DNA of 64,000 nucleotides from Candidatus Latescibacterota bacterium (lineage in GTDB: Bacteria > Latescibacterota > UBA2968 > UBA8231): the NCBI GenBank assembly GCA_965261395.1, contig OZ253462.1:139439-203438 (forward strand). The letters run 5' to 3'. The notes beneath the pieces are model-generated. The model did not search any database, had not been told where the DNA came from, and was given only the letters and a program-made list of their open reading frames with translations. Below, in pieces: positions 3,126-49,770 of this stretch; within the stretch, counting starts at the first letter, position 1; the number at the start of each line of letters is the position of its first letter. Position numbers and translations under genes: made by a program.

Positions 3126-5567
3126 TCAACCATCCCGCCGCCGCTGCCGCCACGCCCCCACCCCCACGCCCACCACCACCACCAACCCCAGCAAAGCCGC
3201 CACCCGCGCCCCAACCAACACCGGCGAAAAATAGCGCAACTCCACCTCGTGCTCCCCCCCCGGCAACGCCACCCCCTTCCATATATAGTTCACCCGCAGC
3301 AGCTCGGCCTCCTCCCCATCCACCCACACCGACCAATTCGATTGGTAATTCTCCGACACCACCAGCACGCGCGGCCCCCCGCTGTGCGTCCGCAGGCGAA
3401 TCAACCCGTCCTTTGGATCGTACGCCAGCCGCTCCACCCGGTCGCCGGCCCGCTCCCCCGCGCCATCGAGCCGCACCGCCGGCGCACTCTCCAACAACGC
3501 CAGCCGCTGCGGATCCACCCGCCCACTCAACAGCCGCGCCAACACCGCCTCGCCACTATCCAACACCTCGGCTTGCGGTACCAAGTAAAACCACGGCAAC
3601 GCCTGCGGATTTTCGTACAGCCGAAAGCGCGCCCCCTCAAAGCGCCGCGGATACGCCGCCAAATTCAATTCTAGCGGTTTAGGCACCGCCAAATACTTCC
3701 CATTGAGCAAATTCAACAACGACTGAAACCCAGCCGACGGCGCACCCGTGCGCAGAAACTGCTGCACCAGCGGCTCAAACTCCTTCAGCATCCGGTCGTA
3801 GCGCCCCACCGTCAAATCGTGAAAGCCCGTGATGGACCAAACGCCGTGCAAGTGATAGCCCGGCTCCTCCAGCACCCGAAAACTCGGCAAAGGCAAGACG
3901 CGAAACAGCGACTCATCGCTTTGCAAAAACTGCACCGCGCGCAGATTCTCGCGGCGAATATCCGTGTACCGGCCTGGATCCCGATAGCTCAAATAAACCC
4001 GATCAACGCGCCACGTATCGAACAGCGTCACCACACACAAGCCCGCCACCAACACCGTCGCCGAAAGCTGGCCCCCCAGCCGCAAATAGAGCAACGCCAA
4101 CCCCGCACCCAAAGCCACCACCACACACCAACCGCCGCGCGCAATCCAATCGTAGCTCCCAGCCAACACCGCCCGCTTCTGCGGCGCAATATCTTCGTAC
4201 AACAAATTCACCCACGCATCGGTCGCCCCCTTGGGAAACAGCGCGACCAGCAGGGCGAACGCGGCGAGAATACCGCCGACATAGGCCAAGCGACTCCGCA
4301 ACAACGCCCGCTCATCCGCGTCCGCATCCAACACCCGCTGCAACCCCAACCCGGCCAGCGCACACCCGGCAAACGCAAACACAAACGACCCCATGCCAAT
4401 GGCCCGCTGCACATCCGCCCCAAGCAGCAAGTGAAACGCCAGCCAGTGCACGGGCGTGTGCTCGCCCAGCACGTAGGCCAACGCCAGCACAAACACGCCC
4501 CCCAGCAGCGCCACTTGCGGCCGCCGCCTACACTCCGGCACCATCAGCAAAGCCAACAGCACGGCGAGCGCGCCAAAGTACTCGGAATTAATCTTAAACG
4601 CATTGCGTCCCCAATAGCGCGAGCCACCCTCTACCAGCACGTCGTCATACCCACCGAACTCCGGCACCACCAGCGACGCCACTTCCTCGGGATGCAGCGA
4701 CCAGCTCTGCGCATACGCGAGCTGTTCCTCCGCGGTCTTGCCGCCCACCTCGTCGCCCGTGGCCCGCTTGGACTCGGCGCGGGTGTAGAGCATCACCGGA
4801 AAAGCCCCCTCGGCTCCCAAGGCCAACCCCAGCACCACCGCGCCGATAAAATGCACCACGCGCCGGATCACGGCTCGCTCGCGGCGCATCTGGTACAGCT
4901 TAAATAGGAAATAGACGCCCAGACCCAGCAGCGCGAAGTACGTCATCGGCGGATGGGAATAGATGCACGCGCCAATCAGCGCGCCGAGAGCCGCCCAATA
5001 GATCAGCCGCCCCTGCGCCAGAGCCTTTTCCAACGCCCAGATAATCCACGGGAACAGGGCGATGACGCCCATCTTGGCATAGTGGCCAGCCAAGGGGAAC
5101 GCCAAAAAGGTCGGCGCGGACATGAACGCTACTCCGCCCCACAGCGCGGCGCGACCGCCCACGTGGATTTGGCGCAAGTACGCGTACATACCGAGGCCAG
5201 CGGCGAACATCGTCAGGATATAGCGCCAGCCGATATACCGCTGAAAGGTCGTAAAAAAATACAAGACGTAGGCCGGGAAGTATTGGGGACGAATGGCCTC
5301 GGACTGGGGGAAGCCGCCCATCTTGGGATCCCACATCGGCTGCGCCACCGTCTGCACCTTGTCCCAAAAGCTCAGGGCCGTGCCCTTGTGGTAGTCCGTG
5401 CCCACGTCCATGCCAAAGACGATCTTGTCCGACAGGGGAAATTCGTAGAAGTACAGCAGGCTCAGGGCGAGGAAAAAGACCGGCGGGAACAAGCGGTGAT
5501 TCCACAGGGGCGACCCAGCGGCCTTTGCCGGGGCTTGGGTTTTGGCGCGTTTGTTCTTTTTGACCAT
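3126..5567 (-). CDS. YfhO-like polytopic membrane protein (putative GT-C type glycosyltransferase)
   Basis: 813-835 aa with many hydrophobic segments. The C-terminal soluble tail VVSENYQSNWSVWVDGEEAELLRVNYIWKGVALPGGEHEVELRYFSP resembles the YfhO family as I remember it. I prefer the start MVKKNKRAKT at 5567; the ORF is open to 5633. Confidence 0.55.
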   Translation of the reverse strand: MVKKNKRAKTQAPAKAAGSPLWNHRLFPPVFFLALSLLYFYEFPLSDKIVFGMDVGTDYHKGTALSFWDKVQTVAQPMWDPKMGGFPQSEAIRPQYFPAYVLYFFTTFQRYIGWRYILTMFAAGLGMYAYLRQIHVGGRAALWGGVAFMSAPTFLAFPLAGHYAKMGVIALFPWIIWALEKALAQGRLIYWAALGALIGACIYSHPPMTYFALLGLGVYFLFKLYQMRRERAVIRRVVHFIGAVVLGLALGAEGAFPVMLYTRAESKRATGDEVGGKTAEEQLAYAQSWSLHPEEVASLVVPEFGGYDDVLVEGGSRYWGRNAFKINSEYFGALAVLLALLMVPECRRRPQVALLGGVFVLALAYVLGEHTPVHWLAFHLLLGADVQRAIGMGSFVFAFAGCALAGLGLQRVLDADADERALLRSRLAYVGGILAAFALLVALFPKGATDAWVNLLYEDIAPQKRAVLAGSYDWIARGGWCVVVALGAGLALLYLRLGGQLSATVLVAGLCVVTLFDTWRVDRVYLSYRDPGRYTDIRRENLRAVQFLQSDESLFRVLPLPSFRVLEEPGYHLHGVWSITGFHDLTVGRYDRMLKEFEPLVQQFLRTGAPSAGFQSLLNLLNGKYLAVPKPLELNLAAYPRRFEGARFRLYENPQALPWFYLVPQAEVLDSGEAVLARLLSGRVDPQRLALLESAPAVRLDGAGERAGDRVERLAYDPKDGLIRLRTHSGGPRVLVVSENYQSNWSVWVDGEEAELLRVNYIWKGVALPGGEHEVELRYFSPVLVGARVAALLGLVVVVGVGVGAWRQRRRDG

Positions 5568-5643
5568 GAACGATCTCCGTGGGGCAACCAGCAGTGGGTC
5601 CCTTAATACACGACCGTAATCCAATGGACGCATCGAGATACAA

Positions 5644-5724
5644 GATGCTTCGACTCCGCTTTGCTGCGCTCAGCATGACAGCATGGGACGTCAACACCTG
5701 TCATGCTGAGCGCAGCGAAGCATC
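5644..5724. repeat. long imperfect palindrome (REP-like hairpin) between GT4 and the YfhO-like gene
   Basis: The left arm is gatgcttcg[actccgcttt]gctgcgctcagcatgaca (5644-5680). The right arm is tgtcatgctgagcgcagcgaagcatc (5699-5724). They pair over 17 bp plus 9 bp, with an 18-nt loop. Confidence 0.7.
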
Positions 5725-37729: not shown

Positions 37730-38010
37730 GGTAGGCCGGGGAGACTGTCTGACGAATCGCCTCTTGCAGCCCCCGTGATCGACATTACACAACCCTTAGT
37801 TACGCACCCGTCCGGTCGCGTGCGTCGCGAGGCAGTTCGCCTCCTGCAAGGAGCCTAGCCGCCACACCGGATGCACTCGCACCAAGCCGAACTCCCGGTT
37901 GCCCCAGTGTCGGGGGGCGTCCTCGGTAGCAGCGCTACTGCGGAGGATGGACGCCCGAACCTGCTCCATTTCCCGAGCCAGATTCCCCTTGTATGGGAAC
38001 GAGAGAGGGC
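37730..38010 (+). repeat. island repeat family, copy D (divergent 5'/central part, conserved 3' module)
   Basis: 37918-38010 reads gtcctcggtagcagcgctactgcggaggatggacgcccgaacctgctccatttcccgagccagattccccttgtatgggaacgagagagggc. It matches 49678-49770 and 44325-44404 with scattered substitutions. Confidence 0.65.
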
Positions 38011-38013
38011 ACG

Positions 38014-38199
38014 TCGCAAGCGCTGGCCGGCGCATGCCCCGGTGGCGATGGTCCCTCGCACCGAGGCCGCCGTCAGGGCGGCCAGCACGGGCTCCTCATC
38101 GGCGAACTGATCGGCGTCGAGTAGGCCGTGTTGGGTACACAGGCGGATGATGAGGCGCGCACTCGTCTGCACGATCTGCTGCACCTCTGGGTCGGACAA
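38014..38199 (-). pseudogene. internal fragment resembling an IS91-family (Y2) transposase
   Basis: The fragment is IVQTSARLIIRLCTQHGLLDADQFADEEPVLAALTAASVRGTIATGACAGQRLRRAL. It resembles the ...R.L.R.GLL......D..L..L...S...RIA.GP.AG.. region of IS91/IS801 transposases as I remember them. It has no catalytic region, and repeat copy D abuts it. Confidence 0.35.
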
Positions 38200-38414: not shown

Positions 38415-38705
38415 CGCCCGCTGGCAGCGGTCAGGTCAGACTTCGTAGGATGTACGACAGTTGAGGTTGTCGGTTCGGTTTCAGTTCCATTGAGACCTTC
38501 CAGCTGAACATTCGCAATACACAATAGACACGAAAAACTCAGGTAATCGTGGCTGGTGGGGCTAAAGCCAGCACGTAGTCGGACGACACCATTCGTGTGG
38601 GGTGGTATCGTCCCCGAGGAGGACCCGTTGTCTCCCCCTTCGGCATCCGATAGCCACCGCGCGGCCCGGTGAAAATGTAGGTGGGATTGCCCCACGGCAT
38701 ACCAC

Positions 38706-40178
38706 TCAAGCACCCCCACCTTTCGGTTCCGCCGATTGCGTTGACTGACTTTGCCCGCCCTCTCCAGCTGACATCACTAAGCGGTCCCAGTCGGGAGCGC
38801 TTCCATCTCGCAACAAAGCCAACAGAGTGTCTCGGGCCAACTGCCGACCATCGGACAGCGCTTTCCCAAGGTCAATCCGTTTCCGCCTTGCCCGTGACCC
38901 GTGGACCAAAGCGGAACGCGCACCATAGAAATCCTTGACTTTGCGAAATATCCCTATGCGTTCTTCACCGTTGGTCCCGAGGAGATACCCGGCGCGGGTT
39001 TCCAACTTATAGGTGATCTCTGGTGCGTCCAAGCTGTACATGGTCTCAAGAGCTATGGCGGTATCTAGGATGCGGTCTTCTGTACCGAATCGCCCAACTC
39101 TCGAAGGCAAACCCCCGAGCCGTCGGATGGCAAGGCCAAGCCGATCCCGGTCGTCCTGGTACATTCGCCAAGCCCGAACCATTTCAAGAAAGACTTCTGC
39201 ACTGTCCTCAGAAAAGTGATTCTCACGCCACCAGTCGTTCGCCCACCCCCCACCACTGGTCCACCCGAATTTAACGTTGGGGTCCAGGTCCTCCATCCAT
39301 TTGTCCACCCGCACATACTGCCGCCGCGATATTTGTTGTTCTCCAGTTGCAATACAGAGGAAGTCCCGTACCGTTTCGTGGTCCCTGGGGAATTGGTACG
39401 TGGACGACGGGTCTTCCATGGTTTCTTCCTCAAAGGAGAATCGGAACCGGGTATTTAAGATTTTCTCTGATTCCACCTCCGTCGAGGTAATTGCAGGCCC
39501 CCAGGTCAGTTCTCTGACGAGCGCCGCGATGCTCTCCGGAGCTTCATCCAAGGGATGACGCTGTTCGATGCCCGCTGGAAGGTGCCTAAGATTCAGGAAC
39601 GGGAACTCGCCACAAATCGCTTTAGCCTCTTCGTAGGGAGCCAGGAACGCGCCATCCCCGATGTCAAGGCGGCGATCCAACTTGAGTCCGTAGAATAGAG
39701 TAACCTCGTAAGCCTTGAGATCCCGGGCCTCACCCAGCGTCAGGAATCGGTGTAATGTCTCGGCGGCGTTGCTCCCGTCAGTTTTGATAGCCAGTTTGGT
39801 CAAGCTAAGCGCCAAGGTCTTTAGTTCGACACGAAACGCGCCGTATGGTCTTAGAAAATGAACAGCTTGGCCTTGGCTGGAATGGTCCAACGCCTGGCGT
39901 ATCACCGGATGTTCACATAGGGCTGCCTTCACATCGGCCGGGTCGTCATCAAACCATAGGTGGGATTCTTCGAATGCAACCTCCGCGCCGGGTTCATGTT
40001 GCGCCCTACTTGCCAGGGTGCGGTACTCCTCATATGACACCTGTCCGGTATATCTATGGACCCGTCCGAAATCATCGACTTCCTCATAGGGGACCATTGG
40101 TCTTACCCTTGGGGCCAGAGCCATCAGGCTGGCAGCCAACCCTTCAATCCAGCAACTAAGTTCGAAATCTTGCTTCAT
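38706..40178 (-). CDS. hypothetical protein with a C-terminal HEPN-like domain (Apea-like; Rx4H)
   Basis: 490 aa. The C-terminal ~130 aa read RLGLAIRRLG...EDRILDTAIALETMYSL...EITYKLETRAGYLLG...IFRKVKDFYGARSALVHGS. I verified the RSALVH codons at 38918-38901. GAGGAAGG lies upstream of the ATG. Confidence 0.6.
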   Translation of the reverse strand: MKQDFELSCWIEGLAASLMALAPRVRPMVPYEEVDDFGRVHRYTGQVSYEEYRTLASRAQHEPGAEVAFEESHLWFDDDPADVKAALCEHPVIRQALDHSSQGQAVHFLRPYGAFRVELKTLALSLTKLAIKTDGSNAAETLHRFLTLGEARDLKAYEVTLFYGLKLDRRLDIGDGAFLAPYEEAKAICGEFPFLNLRHLPAGIEQRHPLDEAPESIAALVRELTWGPAITSTEVESEKILNTRFRFSFEEETMEDPSSTYQFPRDHETVRDFLCIATGEQQISRRQYVRVDKWMEDLDPNVKFGWTSGGGWANDWWRENHFSEDSAEVFLEMVRAWRMYQDDRDRLGLAIRRLGGLPSRVGRFGTEDRILDTAIALETMYSLDAPEITYKLETRAGYLLGTNGEERIGIFRKVKDFYGARSALVHGSRARRKRIDLGKALSDGRQLARDTLLALLRDGSAPDWDRLVMSAGEGGQSQSTQSAEPKGGGA

Positions 40179-40442
40179 CCTTCCTCACCTCTTTTGGGAA
40201 TTGGCTTCGTGCTCCGAACCCCCAAGCCGATCTGGAGGACGCATCATCACAGACCCCTTACAGGTTCTCCTTGTCAGGCGGTCCCTCTGAGTAGGACTGG
40301 AACAAAGCCGGCTACGTTCTCATCGAGTCGGGCGCTTTCCCGGTCGGCCCTTCGCCGACAGTCAGCAGGCCAGCCAAGCACGAGGCGTGGGAGGATGGCT
40401 CCACCAGCGCAGTGGAAAACATTCTCGCCCGCCGCAGTATCG

Positions 40443-41750
40443 TCACGGAACAGCCATGTAGAACTCCATCAAGTGGGGGAGTAGACTCAGCGCATGGAGG
40501 TGCTCTCCTAGCTGAGAGACGAACACTGACTCAGTATCATCTGGGTCAATGTTGTCAGACGCTACGTGAAACACAATGTTCCGAAAGTATCTAAGCTTGG
40601 GCGGAACGGCTTGCGGTCCCGCAATTCCTTCAATCTCATCGTGTCGTAACTCAGGAAACTCTTCGACAGCCTGGTGGTATATCCTCAGAGGTTCGGCAAG
40701 CAATGCGGTACTCACGCGCACCGGAGCAATCAGGTTTTGAGCCTGCTGATCGGTGATTGAGCTAGTATCCATGACCAATAAATCAAAGGGGCTGTGGGCA
40801 TCCAGTTCAGTCCGGCTTCTGATTGCTCGTAACTTGCTGATGTCGAGTAGATTCACAAACTCATTTGACAGTACCAGAGACCGCATCAGAATTCTCACGC
40901 AGTCCGTCTTAGCCTCCTGAACAAAGGATGGATAGCGTGGCCCATGGCTGACATTGTGCTTTCTGAACAACCCGAGCATATACCATGTTCGCAGGTTAAA
41001 CGGTGTCTGGGTTGATTCATCAGTTGGGGTGTTGTATAAGCCGGGCAATGGACGCGAGAAAACTTCCCACCTCTTATGCAATTTTGAAAGTTTGTCCTTG
41101 TCAGCTGGTCCAGAAGATTTGTTGGCGCGAAGTAACTCTTCGCCGACCAACTCGGATAATGACCATCGGAGCCATGCTGCATACGCATCAATTGCCGACT
41201 GAGCCTTAAACACAGTGGAGTAGTAGTGACCATCTATCCCTCCGCCAGTCTCCATGAAGTTGTCGAGTGCGTCATGGAGATGTATTCGTTTAGCAGGATG
41301 CAACACCTTATCCCTAAGAGTGGTCAGATGTTGAATAGTAGTCTCGTTGGACTGGAACAAGGCTTCGAGGGGATCGAAGAGGAGGGCTGGGTCTCTTCTT
41401 GACTCCCTTCTATAACTCTCCAATTCCGCAGAGAGTAGGCACAAGTACATTTCCCATGGAACCCAAGTCACAAACTCCAATATCCTGCGACTATTTAAGT
41501 CTGGGTCGAGGTCTTGGTCTTGGAACATCAGGTTATATACGGCGTCAATGTCCCTGTCATCGATCAGTTGGGACATGCCTAGATTCTTCATCACACGAGT
41601 TTGGTGGTTGATATTGCGGAATGCAATGACGCGAACACCTTCCAATATGACACTCCGGTGATACTGAAGGTTTCGGTAGTGCTTTATTGCCTCATTCGGC
41701 AAATGGCTTCGCATTTTCTTATAGGCACCCTTATGTTTATCGGTCATCAT
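40443..41750 (-). CDS. hypothetical protein with two Rx4H (HEPN-type) motifs
   Basis: 435 aa. I verified TLRDKVLHP (codons 41315-41298) and YFRNIVFHV (codons 40583-40566) on the sequence. No other family signal recognised. Confidence 0.5.
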   Translation of the reverse strand: MMTDKHKGAYKKMRSHLPNEAIKHYRNLQYHRSVILEGVRVIAFRNINHQTRVMKNLGMSQLIDDRDIDAVYNLMFQDQDLDPDLNSRRILEFVTWVPWEMYLCLLSAELESYRRESRRDPALLFDPLEALFQSNETTIQHLTTLRDKVLHPAKRIHLHDALDNFMETGGGIDGHYYSTVFKAQSAIDAYAAWLRWSLSELVGEELLRANKSSGPADKDKLSKLHKRWEVFSRPLPGLYNTPTDESTQTPFNLRTWYMLGLFRKHNVSHGPRYPSFVQEAKTDCVRILMRSLVLSNEFVNLLDISKLRAIRSRTELDAHSPFDLLVMDTSSITDQQAQNLIAPVRVSTALLAEPLRIYHQAVEEFPELRHDEIEGIAGPQAVPPKLRYFRNIVFHVASDNIDPDDTESVFVSQLGEHLHALSLLPHLMEFYMAVP

Positions 41751-41808: not shown

Positions 41809-41999
41809 ATGTATAGGAAAAATAAGGCCCGATGTCGGTACTATGCAGTTCGCTGAAAACGTACGCAAGGGGCCAGCAGGGTCCCTGATGAATCGCTTGT
41901 CGTCGTCCAGCATCGTTCGGGACTGCTCTCAGTACCGTTGTAAAGGATTTCTGTGCGTTTCAGGGGTCAGCCCGGTACTTGAGGGTGCACTCCTCCGTA
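41809..41999 (+). repeat. island repeat family, copy A (5' and central modules; 3' module missing)
   Basis: It aligns to 49497-49689: atgtatagGaaaaataaggcCccgatGtcggtactatgcaGttcgctgaaaacgtacgcaagggg...caggggtca.. It diverges after tcctccgta, where the IS110-like fragment begins. Confidence 0.8.
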
Positions 42000-42033: not shown

Positions 42034-42219
42034 TCAGGCAGCGAACTCAAACTGCGGCTGAGGCGGGCCCTCGGCGGGGGCACCGCCGGCAGCCTTACCC
42101 CGCATCAGCACATCACGCCGGTCCGTCTTCACCCGCTCCCCACTGCGACGCGAGATCCGACTCGGTGCCACCACCTCGCACCGGTGGCCCGCTTGGCTAC
42201 TTCGGTCGCGCGAAGGCAA
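42034..42219 (-). pseudogene. short fragment resembling the IS110-family (DEDD) transposase N-domain
   Basis: EVVAPSRISRRSGERVKTDRRDVLM contains the KTDRRDA-like signature. Only about 25 residues are similar. Confidence 0.3.
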
Positions 42220-44151
42220 CGAGCGCGGCGTCTGGCCCGGTGCCCGTCGCGATGACGATGAACTGCCGCCCCGACCGCGCCCGGTAGGTCATCGGGTTCG
42301 CGTTCGTTGGAAACGGCGTCGCGCCACGCCAGACCTCGGTGCCCGTCGCCTTGTCGAACGCATATAGGTACGGAGTGCCGCCGCCGAGGAACACGAGGCC
42401 CCCCTTGGTCACCATCGGGCCGGAGTTGCCGCGCGTGCCCAGCCGCTCCGGCAGCTCGACGCCGCGCAGCAGCGGGTGATTGCGGATCTCGGGGCTGCCC
42501 TCACCGAACGGTATCTTCCACGCAATCTCGCCAGCATCGAGGTCAATAGCCACTAGGTGCGCGTACGGCGGCTTGATGAGCGGAATCGGGCCGAGCTTGC
42601 TCTCCGGGGTTTGCGCGGTGCCCGGTCCGTCGGCCTCCCGAAACATGAGGAGCGACGCACCCCATAGGGACAGTTGTTGCTGTACTCGACGTCGACTTCC
42701 GGGTCGTTGCCCGCATTCTCGCACAACTGGTTCGTGTCGGCGTCTTCCGATGTCCGAACGTACAGCAGCCCGGTCTCGGGATCAAAGGCCGCCCCGCCCC
42801 AGTTCGCGCCGCCGCTGGCGCCCGGGCGCTGGAGCGTCCCCTGAAGACTCGGCGGCGTGAAGAGCGGACCCAGCCGGAACCGCTGCATCTCCTCCACCGC
42901 GAGCGCGTGGATCTCCGGCGTCAGATCGTTCGCGTCCTCCAGCGACACCCCCTGCCTGCTGAAAGGCGGCGGCTTGGTCGGGAACGGCTGCGTCGGATAC
43001 AGCACCTCGCCCGGCACGTCCGTCGTCGTGTCCACCGCACGCTCCTCGATTGGCCACACCGGCTCGCCCGTCACCCGGTCGAACACGTACGTGAAGCCGT
43101 GCTTGGAAACCTGCGCCACCGCGTCGATCTCGCGCCCGTCCACCGTTACCGTCACGAGGTTCGGCGCTGCGGACAGGTCGTAGTCCCACACGCCGTGATG
43201 CACCGCTTGGAAGTGCCACTGCCGCTCACCCGTGCGCACGTCGAGGCACACCAGCGACTCGGCGAAGAGGTTCGCCCCCACCCGGCGGCCACCCCAGTAG
43301 TCGCTGCTCGGCGTGCTCGTCGGCACGTACAGCAGCCCGCGCTCGGCGTCGAGCGATATCAGCCCCCACACGTTGGCGTGGCCGGTGTAGCGCCACGACT
43401 CGTCCTCATAGGTGTCCGCGCCGAAGTCGTCGCTCGATTGCGGGATGGTGAAGAAGACCCAGCGGCGCTCGCCCGTGCGGGCGTCGAACGCCTGCACGGT
43501 TCCGGGGGTGTCGAACTTTCGCTGCAGCCGGTCAGGCACGCGGCTTCCCACGATCACTAGGTCCTCGAACACCACCGGCGGCGAGGTCTGGTCGAACTCG
43601 TGGCGGGTCACCGGGCGGCCATGGCCCTCGGTCAGCACAACGCTCCCGCTCTCGCCGAAGTCCGTGTCTAGCTCGCCGGTCGCGGCATCGATTGCGTACA
43701 GCCGGTCGCGGCTGTTGAGGAAAACGCGGTCGTCGTCGCCGTCGCTCCAGTAGGCGATACCCCGGTGCTTGAAGCCCCTCGGCCCCACACCCTTGGGCCC
43801 ACCTTCGTAGGCCTTGGGATCAAAGGTCCACAGTTCGGCACCCGTCTCCGCGTCGAGAGCCACCACACGCGTGTACATGGTGGAGAGGTAGAGGACGTTG
43901 CCGATCATGATGGGCGTTGCCTGGAATGGGCCCGGCCGGATGCCGTACTCCGCGAGGGGCATCTCGTTCGGCTCCCATTGCCAGACGATCTCCAGTTCGT
44001 CGACATTCGCGGCCGTGATCTCCTCAGCCGCCGAGTACTTAGTGGGCGCCTGCTCGGCACCGACGTACGGCCATTCAATCATGACGCCCGATTCCTGGGC
44101 GCCTGCGAGGGTGGTAAACAAGAGGGCGGCTGTCGCAACGAATCGCTTCAT
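42197..44151 (-). pseudogene. PQQ-dependent dehydrogenase (secreted beta-propeller), disrupted by a 1-nt frameshift
   Basis: The start is MKRFVATAALLFTTLAGAQE at 44151. ORF 42553..44268 carries the N-terminal ~530 aa and ORF 42197..42724 the C-terminal ...LIKPPYAHLVAIDLDAGEIAWKIPFG...RQFIVIATG. Adding one G to the GGGG run (+ strand cccc, 42659-42662) joins them as ...EYSNNCPYGGASLLMFREADGPG... Confidence 0.75.
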
Positions 44152-44191
44152 GGAGGGGAATCCGATTGGAGAATGGAAACTAGTTTCGCGG

Positions 44192-44227
44192 CGTATTCTA
44201 CGTATTCTAGGTATTCTACGTATTCTA
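44192..44227. repeat. 9-bp tandem repeat x4 (cgtattcta / ggtattcta)
   Basis: Copies lie at 44192-44200, 44201-44209, 44210-44218 (g variant) and 44219-44227. The array sits 41 nt upstream of the PQQ-DH start and directly abuts repeat copy B. Confidence 0.9.
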
Positions 44228-44404
44228 GATATCATGGGTCGGCAATATGCAGTTCGCTGAAAACGCACGCAAGGGTCCAGCAGGGTCTCTGATGAATCGC
44301 TTGTCGTCGCACAGAATCGTTCGGGCTACTGCGGAGGGTGGATGCCTGAACCTGCGCCATTTTCCTAGCCAGATTCCCCTTGCCTGGGGACGAGAGAATG
44401 CCCC
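44228..44404 (+). repeat. island repeat family, copy B (5' and 3' modules; central ~85 nt absent)
   Basis: ...tcggcaatatgcagttcgctgaaaacgcacgcaagggtccagcagggtctctgatgaatcgcttgtcgtcgcacagaatcgttcggg is joined directly to ctactgcggagggtggatgcctgaacctgcgccattttcctagccagattccccttgcctggggacgagagaatgcccc. Confidence 0.8.
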
Positions 44405-44742: not shown

Positions 44743-45087
44743 ATGTCCAAGACGTTGGGTGAGCGTATTCGCGAGCTGCGTGATCAGGCAGATCTCTCCC
44801 TACGCGACCTGTCAAAGAGGACCGGTGGCCTGACGGCTGCTTTCCTTTCGGATATTGAGCTGGGGCGACGTTTTCCCTCAGATGATGCCCTTGTCCGTTT
44901 GGCCAAGGCGTTGGGGACGACAGTCGAGGATCTTCGAACCTACGACACGCGTCCGCCAGTACAAGAGATCAAGCGGTTATCCGCGCAGAATCCCGCAATC
45001 GGTGCGGCTTTTCGTAAGATCACCGAGATGACGCCGGAAGAGATACTGAAGATGGTTGAGAAATCGACAAGAAAGAAAAAAAAGTGA
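44743..45087 (+). CDS. XRE-family helix-turn-helix regulator (CapH-like)
   Basis: 114 aa with the HTH_3 pattern LGERIRELRDQADLSLRDLSKRTGGLTAAFLSDIELGRRFPS and a basic C-terminal tail. Confidence 0.85.
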   Translation: MSKTLGERIRELRDQADLSLRDLSKRTGGLTAAFLSDIELGRRFPSDDALVRLAKALGTTVEDLRTYDTRPPVQEIKRLSAQNPAIGAAFRKITEMTPEEILKMVEKSTRKKKK

Positions 45088-45779
45088 GGAGTCTACGCGC
45101 GGATTCGGGTCCCTTCACGGAGAAGCCATTCTTCACCGAGAGCGAGATCGAACGAATGTGCGAGTGTGCCCTCCGCGAAGCAGGATATTACCCTTCCGAA
45201 CCGTCGCGGGTGAACATCGACCGGTTTATCGAGAAGCACTTTGATGTTTCGCCACAGTTCGAGGATCTTCCGGAAGGAGTTCTCGGTTACTCTTGCTTCG
45301 GCGGCGATGGAATGATCAGCATGCACATTACGACGGCACTTACAAACGCGGGAACGCGAGTAGCCGAACGTCGCGTGAACACGACCCTAGCGCACGAGGC
45401 AGGTCACGGGCTGTTTCACTCATATCTCTTCAGCCTTGCTGAAGCCGGGTTAGAGCTTTTTGAGTCTGATCCCGATGTGACAAAGACTAGGATCCTCTGC
45501 CGCGATGAGAATACGCAACGGCAGAAGGTCAACGGGCGATGGTGGGAGACTCAGGCAAATATGGCGATCGGTCCCCTGCTGATGCCAAGATCACTTGTCG
45601 TGGAAGTGGTTAAGCCATTTCTTGTCTCTACAGGCCTCTTGGGAATCGGGGATGTGCCTGAAGATAAGCGCGAGAATGTGGTCGCGACGCTCTCCGACGT
45701 TTTCGACGTTAACCCTGTCGTGGCGCGTATTCGATTGGAGGGAATTTTCAAGCCCTCGGGGGGGCAGCTGTCGCTCTGA
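45084..45779 (+). CDS. ImmA/IrrE-family zinc metallopeptidase (CapP-like)
   Basis: 231 aa. The HEXXH motif is in TLAHEAGHGLFH (H104 codon 45393-45395). It shares a GTGA overlap with the XRE gene. Confidence 0.8.
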   Translation: MRSLRADSGPFTEKPFFTESEIERMCECALREAGYYPSEPSRVNIDRFIEKHFDVSPQFEDLPEGVLGYSCFGGDGMISMHITTALTNAGTRVAERRVNTTLAHEAGHGLFHSYLFSLAEAGLELFESDPDVTKTRILCRDENTQRQKVNGRWWETQANMAIGPLLMPRSLVVEVVKPFLVSTGLLGIGDVPEDKRENVVATLSDVFDVNPVVARIRLEGIFKPSGGQLSL

Positions 45780-45808
45780 TTTTTTTTGGATAAGATGTAA
45801 TCATTGTC

Positions 45809-45822
45809 AGCTTACATAAGCT
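45809..45822. promoter_or_regulatory. inverted repeat AGCTTA-ca-TAAGCT, candidate operator upstream of the Ubl operon
   Basis: agcttacataagct uses the same TAAGCT/AGCTTA half-sites as the palindrome at 44730-44739. Confidence 0.35.
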
Positions 45823-45883
45823 TCTATTGAACCTGAATTCCGGTCTCTATGGACGAGCCGGGATTGCGAGTAAAGGAGAAACA

Positions 45884-45952
45884 ATGGAAAAAATTTTGAC
45901 TTACCTTCGATATGGGAACCAACCGATGTCCATCAGAAAGGAAACCAACTGA
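45884..45952 (+). CDS. possible 22-codon leader ORF coupled to the Ubl gene
   Basis: AAAGGAG (45872-45878) is followed 5 nt later by the ATG at 45884. The peptide is MEKILTYLRYGNQPMSIRKETN. Stop TGA 45950-45952 overlaps the Ubl ATG 45952 (TGATG). Confidence 0.3.
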   Translation: MEKILTYLRYGNQPMSIRKETN

Positions 45953-46218
45953 TGTCCACCCCAAAGAAGATTTCAATCACCGTAGTCGTCAACGGCCAGC
46001 CAACTGTGGTCGATGCCAGCCAAGATGAACCCCTCGGTACGATTATTCCTGATGCGTTGCGTCAGACAGAGAACTCGGGCCAGCCACCAGAGAATTGGGA
46101 GCTCCGCGGTGCCGATGGGACGCTTCTTGACCTAGACAAGAAGATCGAGGACTACGGCTTCCCATCCAAGGTCCGCCTGTTCCTGAATCTCAAGGCGGGG
46201 GTTGGAGGCCATGGTTAA
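45952..46218 (+). CDS. ubiquitin-like beta-grasp protein (BilA-like), C-terminus ...GVGG-HG
   Basis: The 88-aa sequence is MSTPKKISITVVVNGQPTVVDASQDEPLGTIIPDALRQTENSGQPPENWELRGADGTLLDLDKKIEDYGFPSKVRLFLNLKAGVGGHG. The size, the alternating beta pattern, the Gly-Gly near the C-terminus and first position in an E2/JAB/E1 operon support the call. Confidence 0.7.
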   Translation: MSTPKKISITVVVNGQPTVVDASQDEPLGTIIPDALRQTENSGQPPENWELRGADGTLLDLDKKIEDYGFPSKVRLFLNLKAGVGGHG

Positions 46219-46816
46219 CGCGACCGAACAGCATGTAGACCCCGAGGTATCCCGTACCAAGTTCGATCGCGAGATTACCGAGTACCTTTCCCTTGAGGCT
46301 GACTACCGCGCCCGGGGCTGGTTTCTTGTGAAGGCGGACTGGCCTGTGGCAGTCGTTGTTCTGGCCTCGAATAAGACCAGCCCGCCGGCGATTGTGACCG
46401 CCGTCCAGTTCGACTATACGAACTATGACGCCGAGCCGCCCTCAGTTCGCATGACTGATCCGTTCTCCGGCCGATTTCTTCTAAGCAAGGAGCTCCCCAC
46501 CCGCCTCCTTCGCGCGATCCCCGGACCGGAGATGCCCCTACCGAACGGCACCAAGGTGCAGCAGGTATCGGTGCAGGAGCTGATGCAGGCTCACTCTCCG
46601 GAAGACCAACCCTTCCTCTGCGTAGCCGGGGTCAAGGAATATCACGACCACCCTGGCCATTCCGGTGACCAGTGGGAAATACACCGGTCCGCTGGCGAAG
46701 GTCGGATGGTTCGCCTGTTGGAGGTGATTTCCAAGTACGGCCTCGAACCGGTGCAGGGGTTCAACGTCAACCTCGTACCGCAAGTTACCTTCACTGTCTC
46801 GGAGCCTCCCCAGTGA
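46211..46816 (+). CDS. E2-like ubiquitin-conjugating enzyme homologue (BilB-like)
   Basis: About 201 aa from ATG 46211 (open from 46202). The candidate catalytic Cys is in QPFLCVAGVKEYHDHPGH (codon 46619-46621). Its position between the Ubl and JAB genes supports the call. The start overlaps the Ubl stop (ATGGTTAA). Confidence 0.6.
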   Translation: MVNATEQHVDPEVSRTKFDREITEYLSLEADYRARGWFLVKADWPVAVVVLASNKTSPPAIVTAVQFDYTNYDAEPPSVRMTDPFSGRFLLSKELPTRLLRAIPGPEMPLPNGTKVQQVSVQELMQAHSPEDQPFLCVAGVKEYHDHPGHSGDQWEIHRSAGEGRMVRLLEVISKYGLEPVQGFNVNLVPQVTFTVSEPPQ

Positions 46817-47304
46817 CCCTACGAGGCGTGCGGCGTTTTCGAATCCAGGCGAGTGCCATACGCGAAACCATGGAGGCGATTCGGTCTGCAGGACAGGATG
46901 GCTACGAGTTGTTCGTAGTATGGTCGGGTACGCGTGATGACGACATCTTCACCGTCGCCAAGGTGCATATCCCTAAACAAACCTCCTACAAACTCGATGC
47001 CGGACTCTGCGTACGAGTTGACGGTCCTGAGCTCCATCGCTTGAACATGTGGCTCTACGAGGCACAGCAGGCCATAGGAGTGCAGGTCCACGGTCATCCA
47101 GCCGATGCCTATCACTCGGAAACCGACGACACCTACCCGATCGCCACAATGCACGGAAGCCTATCCATCGTCCTTCCCTTCTTCGGCCACGACGGCTGGG
47201 AGTCAAGTGATATCGCGGCCTATCGTCTCGGGCAAGACGGATGGGTCGAACTAACCGGCCCCTTGAGTGACCTGATAGAGGTTGTTGACAATGGCGTTAG
47301 CTGA
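46813..47304 (+). CDS. JAB/MPN+ metalloisopeptidase (BilC-like)
   Basis: GTG 46813 overlaps the E2 stop (GTGA). 163 aa with the Glu in GYELFVVWSG and the motif HGHPADAYHSETD, which is HxH...SxxD (47089-47127). Confidence 0.8.
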   Translation: MTLRGVRRFRIQASAIRETMEAIRSAGQDGYELFVVWSGTRDDDIFTVAKVHIPKQTSYKLDAGLCVRVDGPELHRLNMWLYEAQQAIGVQVHGHPADAYHSETDDTYPIATMHGSLSIVLPFFGHDGWESSDIAAYRLGQDGWVELTGPLSDLIEVVDNGVS

Positions 47305-48796
47305 CTATTTCCCTCGCGACGCGGTCGCCATCTCGCAAGTGCTCCAGGGGTTTCAACGCGACGCCTTCATCGAAAAGCTCGAGGGTGTCCGAGTGGCAAT
47401 CGCCTTCGGCGAGGAGGCGGCTACCAGCCGCGACGGGCGCGAACTCCTTGATCTCTCTGTCAGGCTAGCGGCTCGCTTGTACCCGAGCCTGACGTTTGCC
47501 ACCGTTCCTGCCGGAGATCGGTTCGCCGATGAACTGATGGCGTTGGCCAGTAGCATCAACCCTAACATCGAAGCGTCTAAGACGGGTACTGCTAATGTTG
47601 GTCTCTCGATCGGCGGGGATGCACCGGCCCTAAACGCACCAACCGTATATGCTGGCTGCGATGGCTGGCTGGCCAAGGTGGGAACTGAGGGCCCATACAT
47701 GACCAGCGACCTAGGGAACCCCTTTGGAGCCGGCTTCGCCGCCTGCTTGGCGGCAGCCAACTTGTTTCGCTTCCTCTTCCTCCCCAACGGCACAACTTTG
47801 CTGGATACCGACATTAGTTTCCCTCCCGACGACGCCTCTTTCCCCAGTCTTGCGGCGTCCACACTGGCGGATCCCCTGGTGTTGGTCGGCGTTGGGGCGG
47901 TCGGCAACAGTGCCTCCTGGGCCCTATCGCGTACGCCGCTCACCGGCCAGATTTACCTAGTCGATCCACAAGTCGTCGAACTTAGCAATCTCCAGCGCTA
48001 CGTTCTTGGTGCACGGAGCGACGAAGGCGGCATCAAAGTTGATGTCGCTGCGAAGGAGTTTCGCGCCGCGCTACAGGCGCTTTCTCATCATGGAACATGG
48101 GCTTCCTTCCTCTGCGCCAATGGCTACAAGTGGGAACGCGTTCTAGTTGCCCTCGACTCCGCCCATGACAGGCGAGCCGTACAAGGGAGCCTGCCACGTT
48201 GGATCGCTAACGCATGGACCCAAATAGGCGATCTCGGCGTGTCCTCTCACTCTTTCTTGGGTCAAGACGCCTGTCTTGCCTGCCTTTACTTGCCAACCGA
48301 GAAATCCAAGAGCGAAGACCAGATCGTCGCTGAAGGCCTTAAGATCCCTCAATTCCAGGATCCGGTTCGCTTTCTGCTCGGAAGCGGGCAGGCGACCGGC
48401 AAGGAGCTCTGTGACGCGGTTGCTGCCGCTTGGGGCATCCCGGCCGAGACACTGGAGCCTTATATAGGTAGGTCGATACGTGAACTTTGGGTGGAGGGCA
48501 TCTGTGGCGGCGGTATCATTCCTCTCGGAGAAGCCGGACCTACTCCGGGAGACCGGCAAGTTCCGCTTGCTTTCCAATCGGCTCTTGCCGGTATGCTGCT
48601 GGCCGCGGAAACGGTACGCGACGTGTTGACCGACGGTGCTCAACGCAAGACCCTCATGCGCCGGCTTGATGTCTTGCGCCCCTTAGGCGATCCTTCACCC
48701 CAACCGGCGCTCAAGGCCGGAACGGGTAGCTGTATCTGTGAGGATCGCGATTTTATTACTACCTATCGAACAAAGTATGGAGCAGAAACTGGCTGA
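47291..48796 (+). CDS. E1-like ThiF-family adenylating enzyme (BilD-like)
   Basis: About 501 aa. An N-terminal degenerate domain precedes the active Rossmann domain, which has LVLVGVGAVGNSASWAL, VDPQVVELSNLQRYV, LDSAHDRR and DACLACLY. It overlaps the JAB gene by 14 nt. Confidence 0.8.
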   Translation: MALADYFPRDAVAISQVLQGFQRDAFIEKLEGVRVAIAFGEEAATSRDGRELLDLSVRLAARLYPSLTFATVPAGDRFADELMALASSINPNIEASKTGTANVGLSIGGDAPALNAPTVYAGCDGWLAKVGTEGPYMTSDLGNPFGAGFAACLAAANLFRFLFLPNGTTLLDTDISFPPDDASFPSLAASTLADPLVLVGVGAVGNSASWALSRTPLTGQIYLVDPQVVELSNLQRYVLGARSDEGGIKVDVAAKEFRAALQALSHHGTWASFLCANGYKWERVLVALDSAHDRRAVQGSLPRWIANAWTQIGDLGVSSHSFLGQDACLACLYLPTEKSKSEDQIVAEGLKIPQFQDPVRFLLGSGQATGKELCDAVAAAWGIPAETLEPYIGRSIRELWVEGICGGGIIPLGEAGPTPGDRQVPLAFQSALAGMLLAAETVRDVLTDGAQRKTLMRRLDVLRPLGDPSPQPALKAGTGSCICEDRDFITTYRTKYGAETG

Positions 48797-49496: not shown

Positions 49497-49770
49497 ATGT
49501 ATAGAAAAAATAAGGCACCGATATCGGTACTATGCAATTCGCTGAAAACGTACGCAAGGGGTCAGCAGGGTCCCTGATGAGTCGCTTGGTCGTCGCACCG
49601 AATCGTTCGGGAATGCTCAGAGCACCGTTGTAAAGGATTTCGGCGCGTTTCAGGGGTCAACCTAGTACTTCCCCCCGTCCTCCGTAGCAGCGCTACTGCG
49701 GAGGGTGGACGCCCGAACCTGCGCCATTACCCGAGCCAGATTCCCCTTGCTTGGAAACGAGAGAACGCCC
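49497..49770 (+). repeat. island repeat family, copy C (complete: 5', central and 3' modules)
   Basis: It contains all segments shared with copies A (41809-41999), B (44228-44404) and D (3' module). It ends 74 nt before the katG ATG. Confidence 0.8.

Follow-up and report, generated by a model that had tools for sequence, protein, structure and literature searches.

Two adjacent, independently inherited HEPN ribonuclease candidates in a defence and mobile island of a Candidatus Latescibacterota bacterium

In a 64,000-nt stretch of contig OZ253462.1 from a Candidatus Latescibacterota bacterium (assembly GCA_965261395.1, positions 139,439 to 203,438 of the forward strand), referred to here as the window, two neighbouring genes on one strand were found to encode proteins with R-x4-H (Rx4H) motifs like those of HEPN ribonucleases (RNases). 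The genes, here named A (490 amino acids, aa) and B (435 aa; listed in databases as a 434-aa form starting at the second Met), probably represent two independent single-gene HEPN RNase candidates that lie adjacent in a defence and mobile island, a reading to which we assign a probability of roughly 0.65. The two open reading frames (ORFs), the 264-bp spacer between them and the three Rx4H motifs were located exactly where an earlier reading of the sequence (the original prediction) had placed them; its proposal that the two genes form one module was not borne out by the distribution of their homologues.

Conserved Rx4H dyads and the HEPN assignment

From amino acid composition, 1.1 Rx4H matches are expected by chance in A and 1.5 in B, and a bare Rx4H is therefore not evidence, as about one match per protein would occur by chance. 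One further Rx4H is present in each protein (RQALDH at position 94 of A and RNLQYH at position 26 of B), of which the former was not conserved and the latter kept its R in just 32/63 homologues. The three flagged motifs, RSALVH in A and RDKVLH (motif 1) and RNIVFH (motif 2) in B, were taken as real because they are conserved across homologues. In A, R421, S422, H426 and G427 were invariant in all 31 homologues compared (33–88% identity), as were D368, D372, E378, Y381, R395 and Y418, and far more remote relatives, in other phyla and on plasmids, also kept the R..H pair. Among 63 full-length homologues of B (19–65% identity), motif 1 retained R146 in 63 and H151 in 62, and motif 2 retained R390 and H395 in 61 each. 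The residue following R was D, H or N in 62/63 homologues at motif 1 and N in 49/63 at motif 2, and an acidic residue was found upstream of both (E109 in 53/63; E or D at position 353 in 53/63). The original prediction had named loss of the Arg and His residues among homologues as a point on which it could fail, and on this point it held for both proteins (A 31/31; B at least 61/63). Ratios of nonsynonymous to synonymous substitution rates (dN/dS) of 0.19–0.38 against the nearest homologues (0.2–0.3 for A) showed that both genes are under purifying selection. In addition, a conserved R-N-x-x-H was observed in the first long helix of B (AFRNxNH, residues 40–44 of the 434-aa form; 41618–41632), with R44 in 59/63 and N45 in 58/63 homologues; a spacing of three residues does not fit the HEPN rule.

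HEPN domains are four-helix bundles defined by an Rx4-6H motif that closes helix 3 and extends into the loop leading to helix 4, by a polar residue after the R (N, D or H in most cases) and by a conserved acidic residue upstream (PMC3710099). The Rx4-6H conservation of the superfamily was found in A and in both motifs of B, and so were the polar residue and the upstream acid: D, H or N together with E109 or E353 in B, and the invariant E378 in A, where R is followed, however, by S or T. In AlphaFold2 (AF2) models, each of the three motifs lies at the end of a helix, after which come a loop and one more helix. The model of A (predicted local distance difference test, pLDDT, 83; predicted template modelling score, pTM, 0.79) contains C-terminal helices at residues 324–339, 344–355, 365–380, 388–400, 404–426, 437–458 and 464–473, with R421..H426 closing the helix 404–426. 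In the all-helical model of B (pLDDT 86, pTM 0.89), R145..H150 closes helix 135–149 and R389..H394 closes helix 383–393 (434-aa numbering).

The two halves of B were shown to be related to each other. A profile-profile alignment (hhalign) of the N-terminal against the C-terminal half covered 81 columns (P = 2.5e-4, score 32.2), compared with scores of 14.1 ± 3.1 (maximum 26.4) for 60 column shuffles and 16.3 for a reversed control. The alignment paired PWEMYLCLLSAELESY...LRDKVLH with PVRVSTALLAEPLRIY...FRNIVFH, so that the acidic residue and the R..H dyad of the two halves were in register. Profile comparison thus indicates that B came about when a HEPN-like unit was duplicated internally, and the tandem-HEPN character suspected in the original prediction was supported. 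Neither half of B showed any similarity to the HEPN domain of A by hhalign, and A and B are therefore not paralogues.

B belongs to a family of 48 homologue clusters, and an exhaustive profile search of 1.84 billion proteins detected 246 representative clusters at E ≤ 1e-3, the best 150 of which were all clear family members. Full-length members are about 420–510 aa long and cover both units, and none of the approximately 250 representative clusters carries a name. A metagenome scan for B yielded two loci only, tblastn of B against plasmids yielded nothing, and tblastn of A and of B against phages yielded nothing either. Below the curated Pfam thresholds, B members matched HEPN_Cthe2314 (best 5e-5), HEPN_Swt1 (1.2e-3) and DUF4145 (0.052), and three of the four Pfam families matched in this way by two B members each are HEPN families. 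One HEPN_Cthe2314 match was left when the C-terminal halves of B were scanned alone, and the other sub-threshold matches therefore belong to the N-terminal part.

In A, the helical HEPN-like domain follows an alpha/beta N-terminal domain of about 12 strands and 11 helices of at least 4 residues in the AF2 model, with W10, H90-P91, G164-L165 and W226-G227 as conserved residues. This domain is presumed to be the sensor or regulatory part; it had no match in Pfam or PDB, in agreement with the original prediction, which had recognised nothing known in it. The family of A comprises 51 homologue clusters, none of them annotated, and A was found in 36 of 185,579 species genomes, all 36 being metagenome-assembled genomes (MAGs). 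According to our own assignment, these are spread over at least nine phyla and include Latescibacterota, Chloroflexota/Dehalococcoidia, Gemmatimonadota, Acidobacteriota, Nitrospinota, Actinomycetota, Tectimicrobiota and Pseudomonadota, besides a Versatilivoraceae MAG. Several of the A copies are pseudogenes. The C-terminal domain of A also occurs behind other N-termini: it is carried by plasmids of Aminobacter, Agrobacterium and Sagittula in proteins named 'HEPN domain-containing protein' by NCBI, and tblastn of A against plasmids detected relatives of the HEPN domain only. The Aminobacter plasmid relative is named 'Apea-like HEPN domain-containing' in UniRef, without a Pfam match in our scan, and the plasmid relatives had no Pfam or NCBIfam match. 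Judged by these relatives, the helical domain of A appears to sit on the fringe of the Apea-like HEPN family. The original prediction had assigned the C-terminus of A to this family; the names given to its relatives by NCBI and UniRef and the conserved motif agree with that assignment, and the Pfam family HEPN_Apea did not match.

Several results weigh against a HEPN RNase assignment of A and B. The S or T following R in A is atypical compared with the usual N, D or H. Neither protein matched Pfam (including HEPN_Apea), NCBIfam or PADLOC at curated thresholds, in line with the original prediction, which had recognised nothing known in most of B; PADLOC-DB is assumed here to hold models of ApeA and PD-T7-3. 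Nothing above the curated threshold was obtained with Pfam for alignment members, the family consensus or distant members, and PDB sequence profile searches with A and B returned nothing. Foldseek searches of the whole-chain models against PDB and BFVD gave nothing significant for A or B; the sole HEPN entries for A were 2hsb and 1ufb (E 2–3, TM 0.43, not significant), and B had none. No antitoxin or immunity partner was evident for either gene. As no structural match was obtained, the assignment of the HEPN fold rests on motif position and conservation.

The lack of any significant sequence or structure match to solved or curated HEPN proteins would also fit helical bundles that use an Arg/His pair for binding of a ligand or nucleic acid, and non-catalytic HEPN domains are known, such as those fused to nucleotidyltransferases or the inactive dyad of Swt1 (PMC3710099). 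A related alternative for B is that its dyads pair between chains (N-N', C-C'). However, non-catalytic HEPN domains typically lose Rx4-6H (PMC3710099), which is here the best-conserved feature of both families. In addition, the weak Pfam matches concentrate on HEPN families, and both dyads were kept through the internal duplication of B. We thus regard this explanation as improbable and retain catalytic HEPN domains as the preferred reading of both proteins.

What we infer for A and B, namely RNase activity, oligomeric state, an intramolecular site, a trigger and an anti-phage role, may be pictured as follows. A HEPN active site requires two adjacent Rx4H dyads. As A has a single dyad, its active form should be a dimer or a larger oligomer, in which a second copy would pair with the first so that two R-x4-H dyads meet, as in other single-HEPN proteins. 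A would stay inactive until an infection cue acts via the N-terminal domain and, once active, would cut cellular RNA (tRNA or mRNA) and so abort the infection. ApeA, with its ligand pocket and tRNA anticodon cleavage, and DARNA, which is switched on by single-stranded DNA (ssDNA), operate along these lines and could serve as models for A. In B, HEPN1 and HEPN2 would pair inside one chain and together make up one composite RNase site, on the pattern of Cas13 but with no guide RNA. Such an intramolecular pseudo-dimer is the most economical reading of B, because the two dyads stem from a duplicated unit and the model is a confidently packed single body. Since B has no guide RNA or CRISPR array, its activation would have to come from a protein or small-molecule cue.

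Independent occurrence of A and B

The original prediction had treated A and B as one two-gene module. An intact B was found in none of 45 A loci (0/45, including the 36 genome loci, with up to ±10 kb of flank), and A was found in none of 11 B loci (0/11). This lack of co-occurrence, one of the outcomes that the original prediction had itself named as refuting it, also held for the nearest homologues (84% and 70% identity for A, 83% and 79% for B), and close homologues of B occur without A. The only trace of A-B adjacency outside the window was detected in L050/L051, two loci carrying an A that is 88% identical to that of the window, where the similarity extends over A, the whole 264-nt spacer and a remnant of B (5338–5717) consisting of the last 71 codons (residues 364–434, 69–86% identical). 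The shared spacer and B remnant show that the adjacency was inherited in a narrow lineage and is older than this genome, and the decay of B beside an intact A shows that A does not need B. Thus, A and B are probably two unrelated, independently inherited single genes that happen to adjoin.

A single RNase-based defence or abortive-infection module made up of both genes, for example a sensor with an effector or a toxin with a regulator, is accordingly considered very improbable. The genes do share one strand at a distance of 264 nt with no convincing terminator found between them, the L050/L051 remnant shows that their adjacency predates this genome, and the two halves of one repeat flank the A+B block (see below). 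These points are set against the co-occurrence counts, the decay of B next to an intact A, and a strong ribosome-binding site of A's own, GAGGTGAGGAAGG, directly preceding its ATG. That two genes adjoin in a defence island is no evidence that they form a system, and A and B both travel alone.

The spacer most likely contains the promoter and 5' untranslated region of A itself, since it was conserved with A where B had decayed, folded no better than shuffled sequences (z = -0.01) and had no Rfam match. The region upstream of B also folded no better than shuffles, and an Rfam scan of the window and of seven B homologue loci detected nothing except one tRNA. Downstream of A, the segment 38486–38690 was about 73% identical to DNA downstream of A homologues in L011 and L026, the proteins of which share just 36–53% identity with A. 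The segment consists of two repeated pieces, which L001, L003, L004, L006 and L027 also contain, at unrelated places and in one orientation or the other; in L006 the copies adjoin transposase genes. It is thus probably shared mobile-element debris. As it also follows the A homologues in L050/L051, it was considered as a partner RNA of A, and this was rejected because its pieces recur at unrelated places and orientations in other loci. The non-coding RNA (ncRNA) that the original prediction had suggested looking for in the spacer or in 38415–38705 was therefore not supported.

Locus layout and genomic neighbourhood

The features of the locus are listed in Table 1. The G+C content of the A/B region is 49–59%, compared with 60–69% across most of the window.

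Table 1. Features of the A/B locus in window coordinates.
Feature	Position	Strand	Basis or remark
Gene A	38706..40178	-	490-aa ORF
A residues 1-320, alpha/beta N-terminal domain	39219..40178	-	AF2 model
A residues 324-473, helical HEPN-like domain	38760..39209	-	AF2 helices, invariant residues, annotated plasmid relatives
A motif R421-S-A-L-V-H426	38901..38918	-	Codons verified
B/A spacer, 264 nt	40179..40442	-	
Gene B	40443..41750	-	435-aa ORF
B residues 98-180, repeat copy 1 (HEPN1 core; E109, R146..H151)	41211..41459	-	hhalign
B motif 1, R146-D-K-V-L-H151	41298..41315	-	Codons verified
B residues 343-424, repeat copy 2 (HEPN2 core; E353, R390..H395)	40479..40724	-	hhalign
B motif 2, R390-N-I-V-F-H395	40566..40583	-	Codons verified
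Terminator-like hairpin directly 3' of the A stop codon, inside repeated sequence	38681..38695	-	Consensus scan; counts not above shuffles
Island-specific repeat (~250 nt), right-hand part, bounding the A+B block at its low-coordinate side	37934..38006	+	
Island-specific repeat (~250 nt), left-hand part, bounding the A+B block directly upstream of B	41834..41926	+	

The repeat of about 250 nt that bounds the A+B block is present within the window in a full copy (49524–49770) and in a copy lacking an 80-nt middle part (44238–44403). Its copies occur only in this island and mark the borders between gene modules. The break point (GTACTT|CCCCCC) is shared by the two partial copies, and the order of the A+B block (right part, cargo, left part) resembles a circularly permuted element plus cargo. 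The repeat was absent from the other homologue loci searched and showed no special fold (z = +1.4). An ORF at 37855–38199 was considered as an IS91-type transposase fragment; this was a guess for which no support was found, and it is not claimed here.

Between the A+B block and a ubiquitin-like (Ubl) system stands a gene for a pyrroloquinoline quinone (PQQ)-dependent dehydrogenase that is split into the overlapping ORFs 42553–44268 and 42197–42724 (42197–44268, minus strand) and is probably a frameshifted pseudogene; its region has a G+C content of 67–69% inside the island of 49–59%. The Ubl system (44743–48796) begins with genes for a capH-like helix-turn-helix protein (E = 8.7e-15) and a capP-like peptidase (E = 4.5e-7), followed by genes for a DUF2604 ubiquitin-like protein, a Metal_CEHH/BilB-like protein, a BilC-like JAB protein and a BilD-like E1 protein. 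By its gene content it looks like a CapH/CapP-regulated Bil-type Ubl conjugation system. The nearby Ubl system and the defence-island setting described in the original prediction were thus both recovered, with the capH/capP-like regulators and Bil-like genes lying in a defence and mobile island.

Each of the two genes sits among variable defence and mobile genes across loci. Genes found near homologues elsewhere were of the kinds usual in such regions and included SIR2_2, GmrSD and a fused AAA_21+DUF4435 protein, which has the domain pair of the PARIS system, as well as an E2/ThiF/JAB protein beside patatin and metallo-beta-lactamase (MBL)-fold genes. Other neighbours were methyltransferases, helicases, HicAB, RelB, BrnA, DUF3800 and DUF4238, and mobile neighbours comprised resolvases, integrases, transposases and conjugation genes. 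In L006 (6275–9479), a distant B homologue of 492 aa begins 47 nt after the fused AAA_21+DUF4435 protein (559 aa), on a conjugative element that also encodes a serine recombinase and has TraC/TraG-type and relaxase-like genes. DUF3800 genes were found twice per locus within a few kb of A homologues in L050/L051 and L057, the contexts of which otherwise differ; this recurrence may be a chance feature of island composition.

The same neighbourhoods bear on another possibility, in which anti-phage defence is not the role of one or both genes: they would instead be stress-response RNases, or selfish toxin or addiction genes belonging to mobile elements. Homologues lie beside the recombination and conjugation genes listed above and beside the toxin-antitoxin pairs HicAB, RelB, BrnA and Gp49/HTH_37, and plasmids carry relatives of the HEPN domain of A. 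However, no candidate antitoxin in the form of a conserved small neighbour gene or ncRNA was detected. Minimal HEPN toxins differ from these proteins, which are large and have several domains, and bona fide defence genes often adjoin the homologues. This explanation is thus considered unlikely, and two independent defence-associated RNase candidates are preferred.

Comparison with known systems

HEPN RNases are a main effector class of prokaryotic immunity (Cas13, Csm6, ApeA, DARNA, AbiF and PrrC), and outside CRISPR they are, to our knowledge, almost always single-domain and dimerising. As there are well-known HEPN RNases and abortive-infection effectors encoded by single genes, A and B are not categorically new. 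Both families are rare and unnamed in any source, and B is the more novel of the two. It is conceivable, at somewhat less than even odds, that B is the founding member of a hitherto undescribed family of compact tandem-HEPN RNases that do without CRISPR and have a Cas13-like intramolecular site, and that A adds a new sensor domain to Apea-like effectors. A would then offer a new N-terminal domain of about 320 aa as a candidate infection sensor on such an effector, and B a small scaffold for studying how an enzyme of this type stays off and then switches on.

ApeA cleaves tRNA anticodons and is auto-inhibited until a ligand binds outside the active site and activates it; it is a predominantly alpha-helical monomer with three domains (an N-terminal one, a Mid one and HEPN_ApeA), the HEPN part of Ec2ApeA spanning residues 335–583 (10.64898/2026.01.26.701840). 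A resembles ApeA in that it stands alone and carries its HEPN domain at the C-terminus, behind a large non-catalytic N-terminal region, and in its signature ...ALExxY...RA...FYxxRSxxxHG. It differs from the mostly helical ApeA in its alpha/beta N-terminal 320 aa, so that the ApeA architecture was not recovered, and in the S or T after R. Besides, A did not match HEPN_Apea or any ApeA N-terminal family in Pfam, even when the consensus was used, and had no PADLOC match at E ≤ 1, where an ApeA model is assumed to be present. Because its N-terminal domain is alpha/beta and matches nothing, A was placed beside, and not inside, ApeA.

For B, several known proteins offer partial likenesses. DARNA (PD-T7-3) is a single-gene HEPN tRNase activated by ssDNA (10.64898/2026.02.22.705581). 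Like B, it is all alpha-helical, and it is of similar size (456 aa). It is encoded by a stand-alone abortive-infection gene, and with its Rx4H in the N-terminal third (R117..H122) it resembles the N-terminal half of B. Its C-terminal domain is non-catalytic and Pds5-like, whereas the C-terminal half of B is a second HEPN unit with a conserved dyad, and B had no PADLOC match. AbiD and AbiF (Abi_2) are defence-associated HEPN RNases of the Swt1/Abi2 clade, and two B members weakly matched the Swt1-like HEPN family. An AbiF chain contains a single HEPN domain; the protein forms dimers, and an ncRNA next to it neutralises it. In B, by contrast, two HEPN units are present, Abi_2 did not match, and neither RF03085 nor any other conserved RNA was found in the flanks. 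Swt1 shares with B a tandem HEPN pair in one protein (PMC3710099, Table 1), but its dyad is described as inactive with the motif lost and it is fused to a PIN domain in eukaryotes, whereas the dyads of B are conserved and no PIN domain is present.

In layout, B resembles Cas13, especially the compact Cas13an: it is itself compact (435 aa), and both of its HEPN units, each with an intact Rx4H dyad, belong to a single polypeptide, the joining of a HEPN domain pair within one chain being the defining feature of Cas13. B differs from Cas13 in that no CRISPR array or array-like repeat was found near B or at six homologue loci, no guide RNA family was detected by Rfam in the window and seven B loci, and no sequence or structural match was obtained to any Cas13 in PDB. 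The two units of B are instead each other's closest detectable relatives, which indicates a duplication independent of Cas13. A duplication with both dyads kept would show that a pseudo-dimer of the Cas13 type can arise without guide RNAs. If this is true, the architecture defining Cas13 would have originated a second time, independently, in B, which would also be an extant example of the stage of fusion of two related HEPN genes that has been proposed for Cas13 ancestry.

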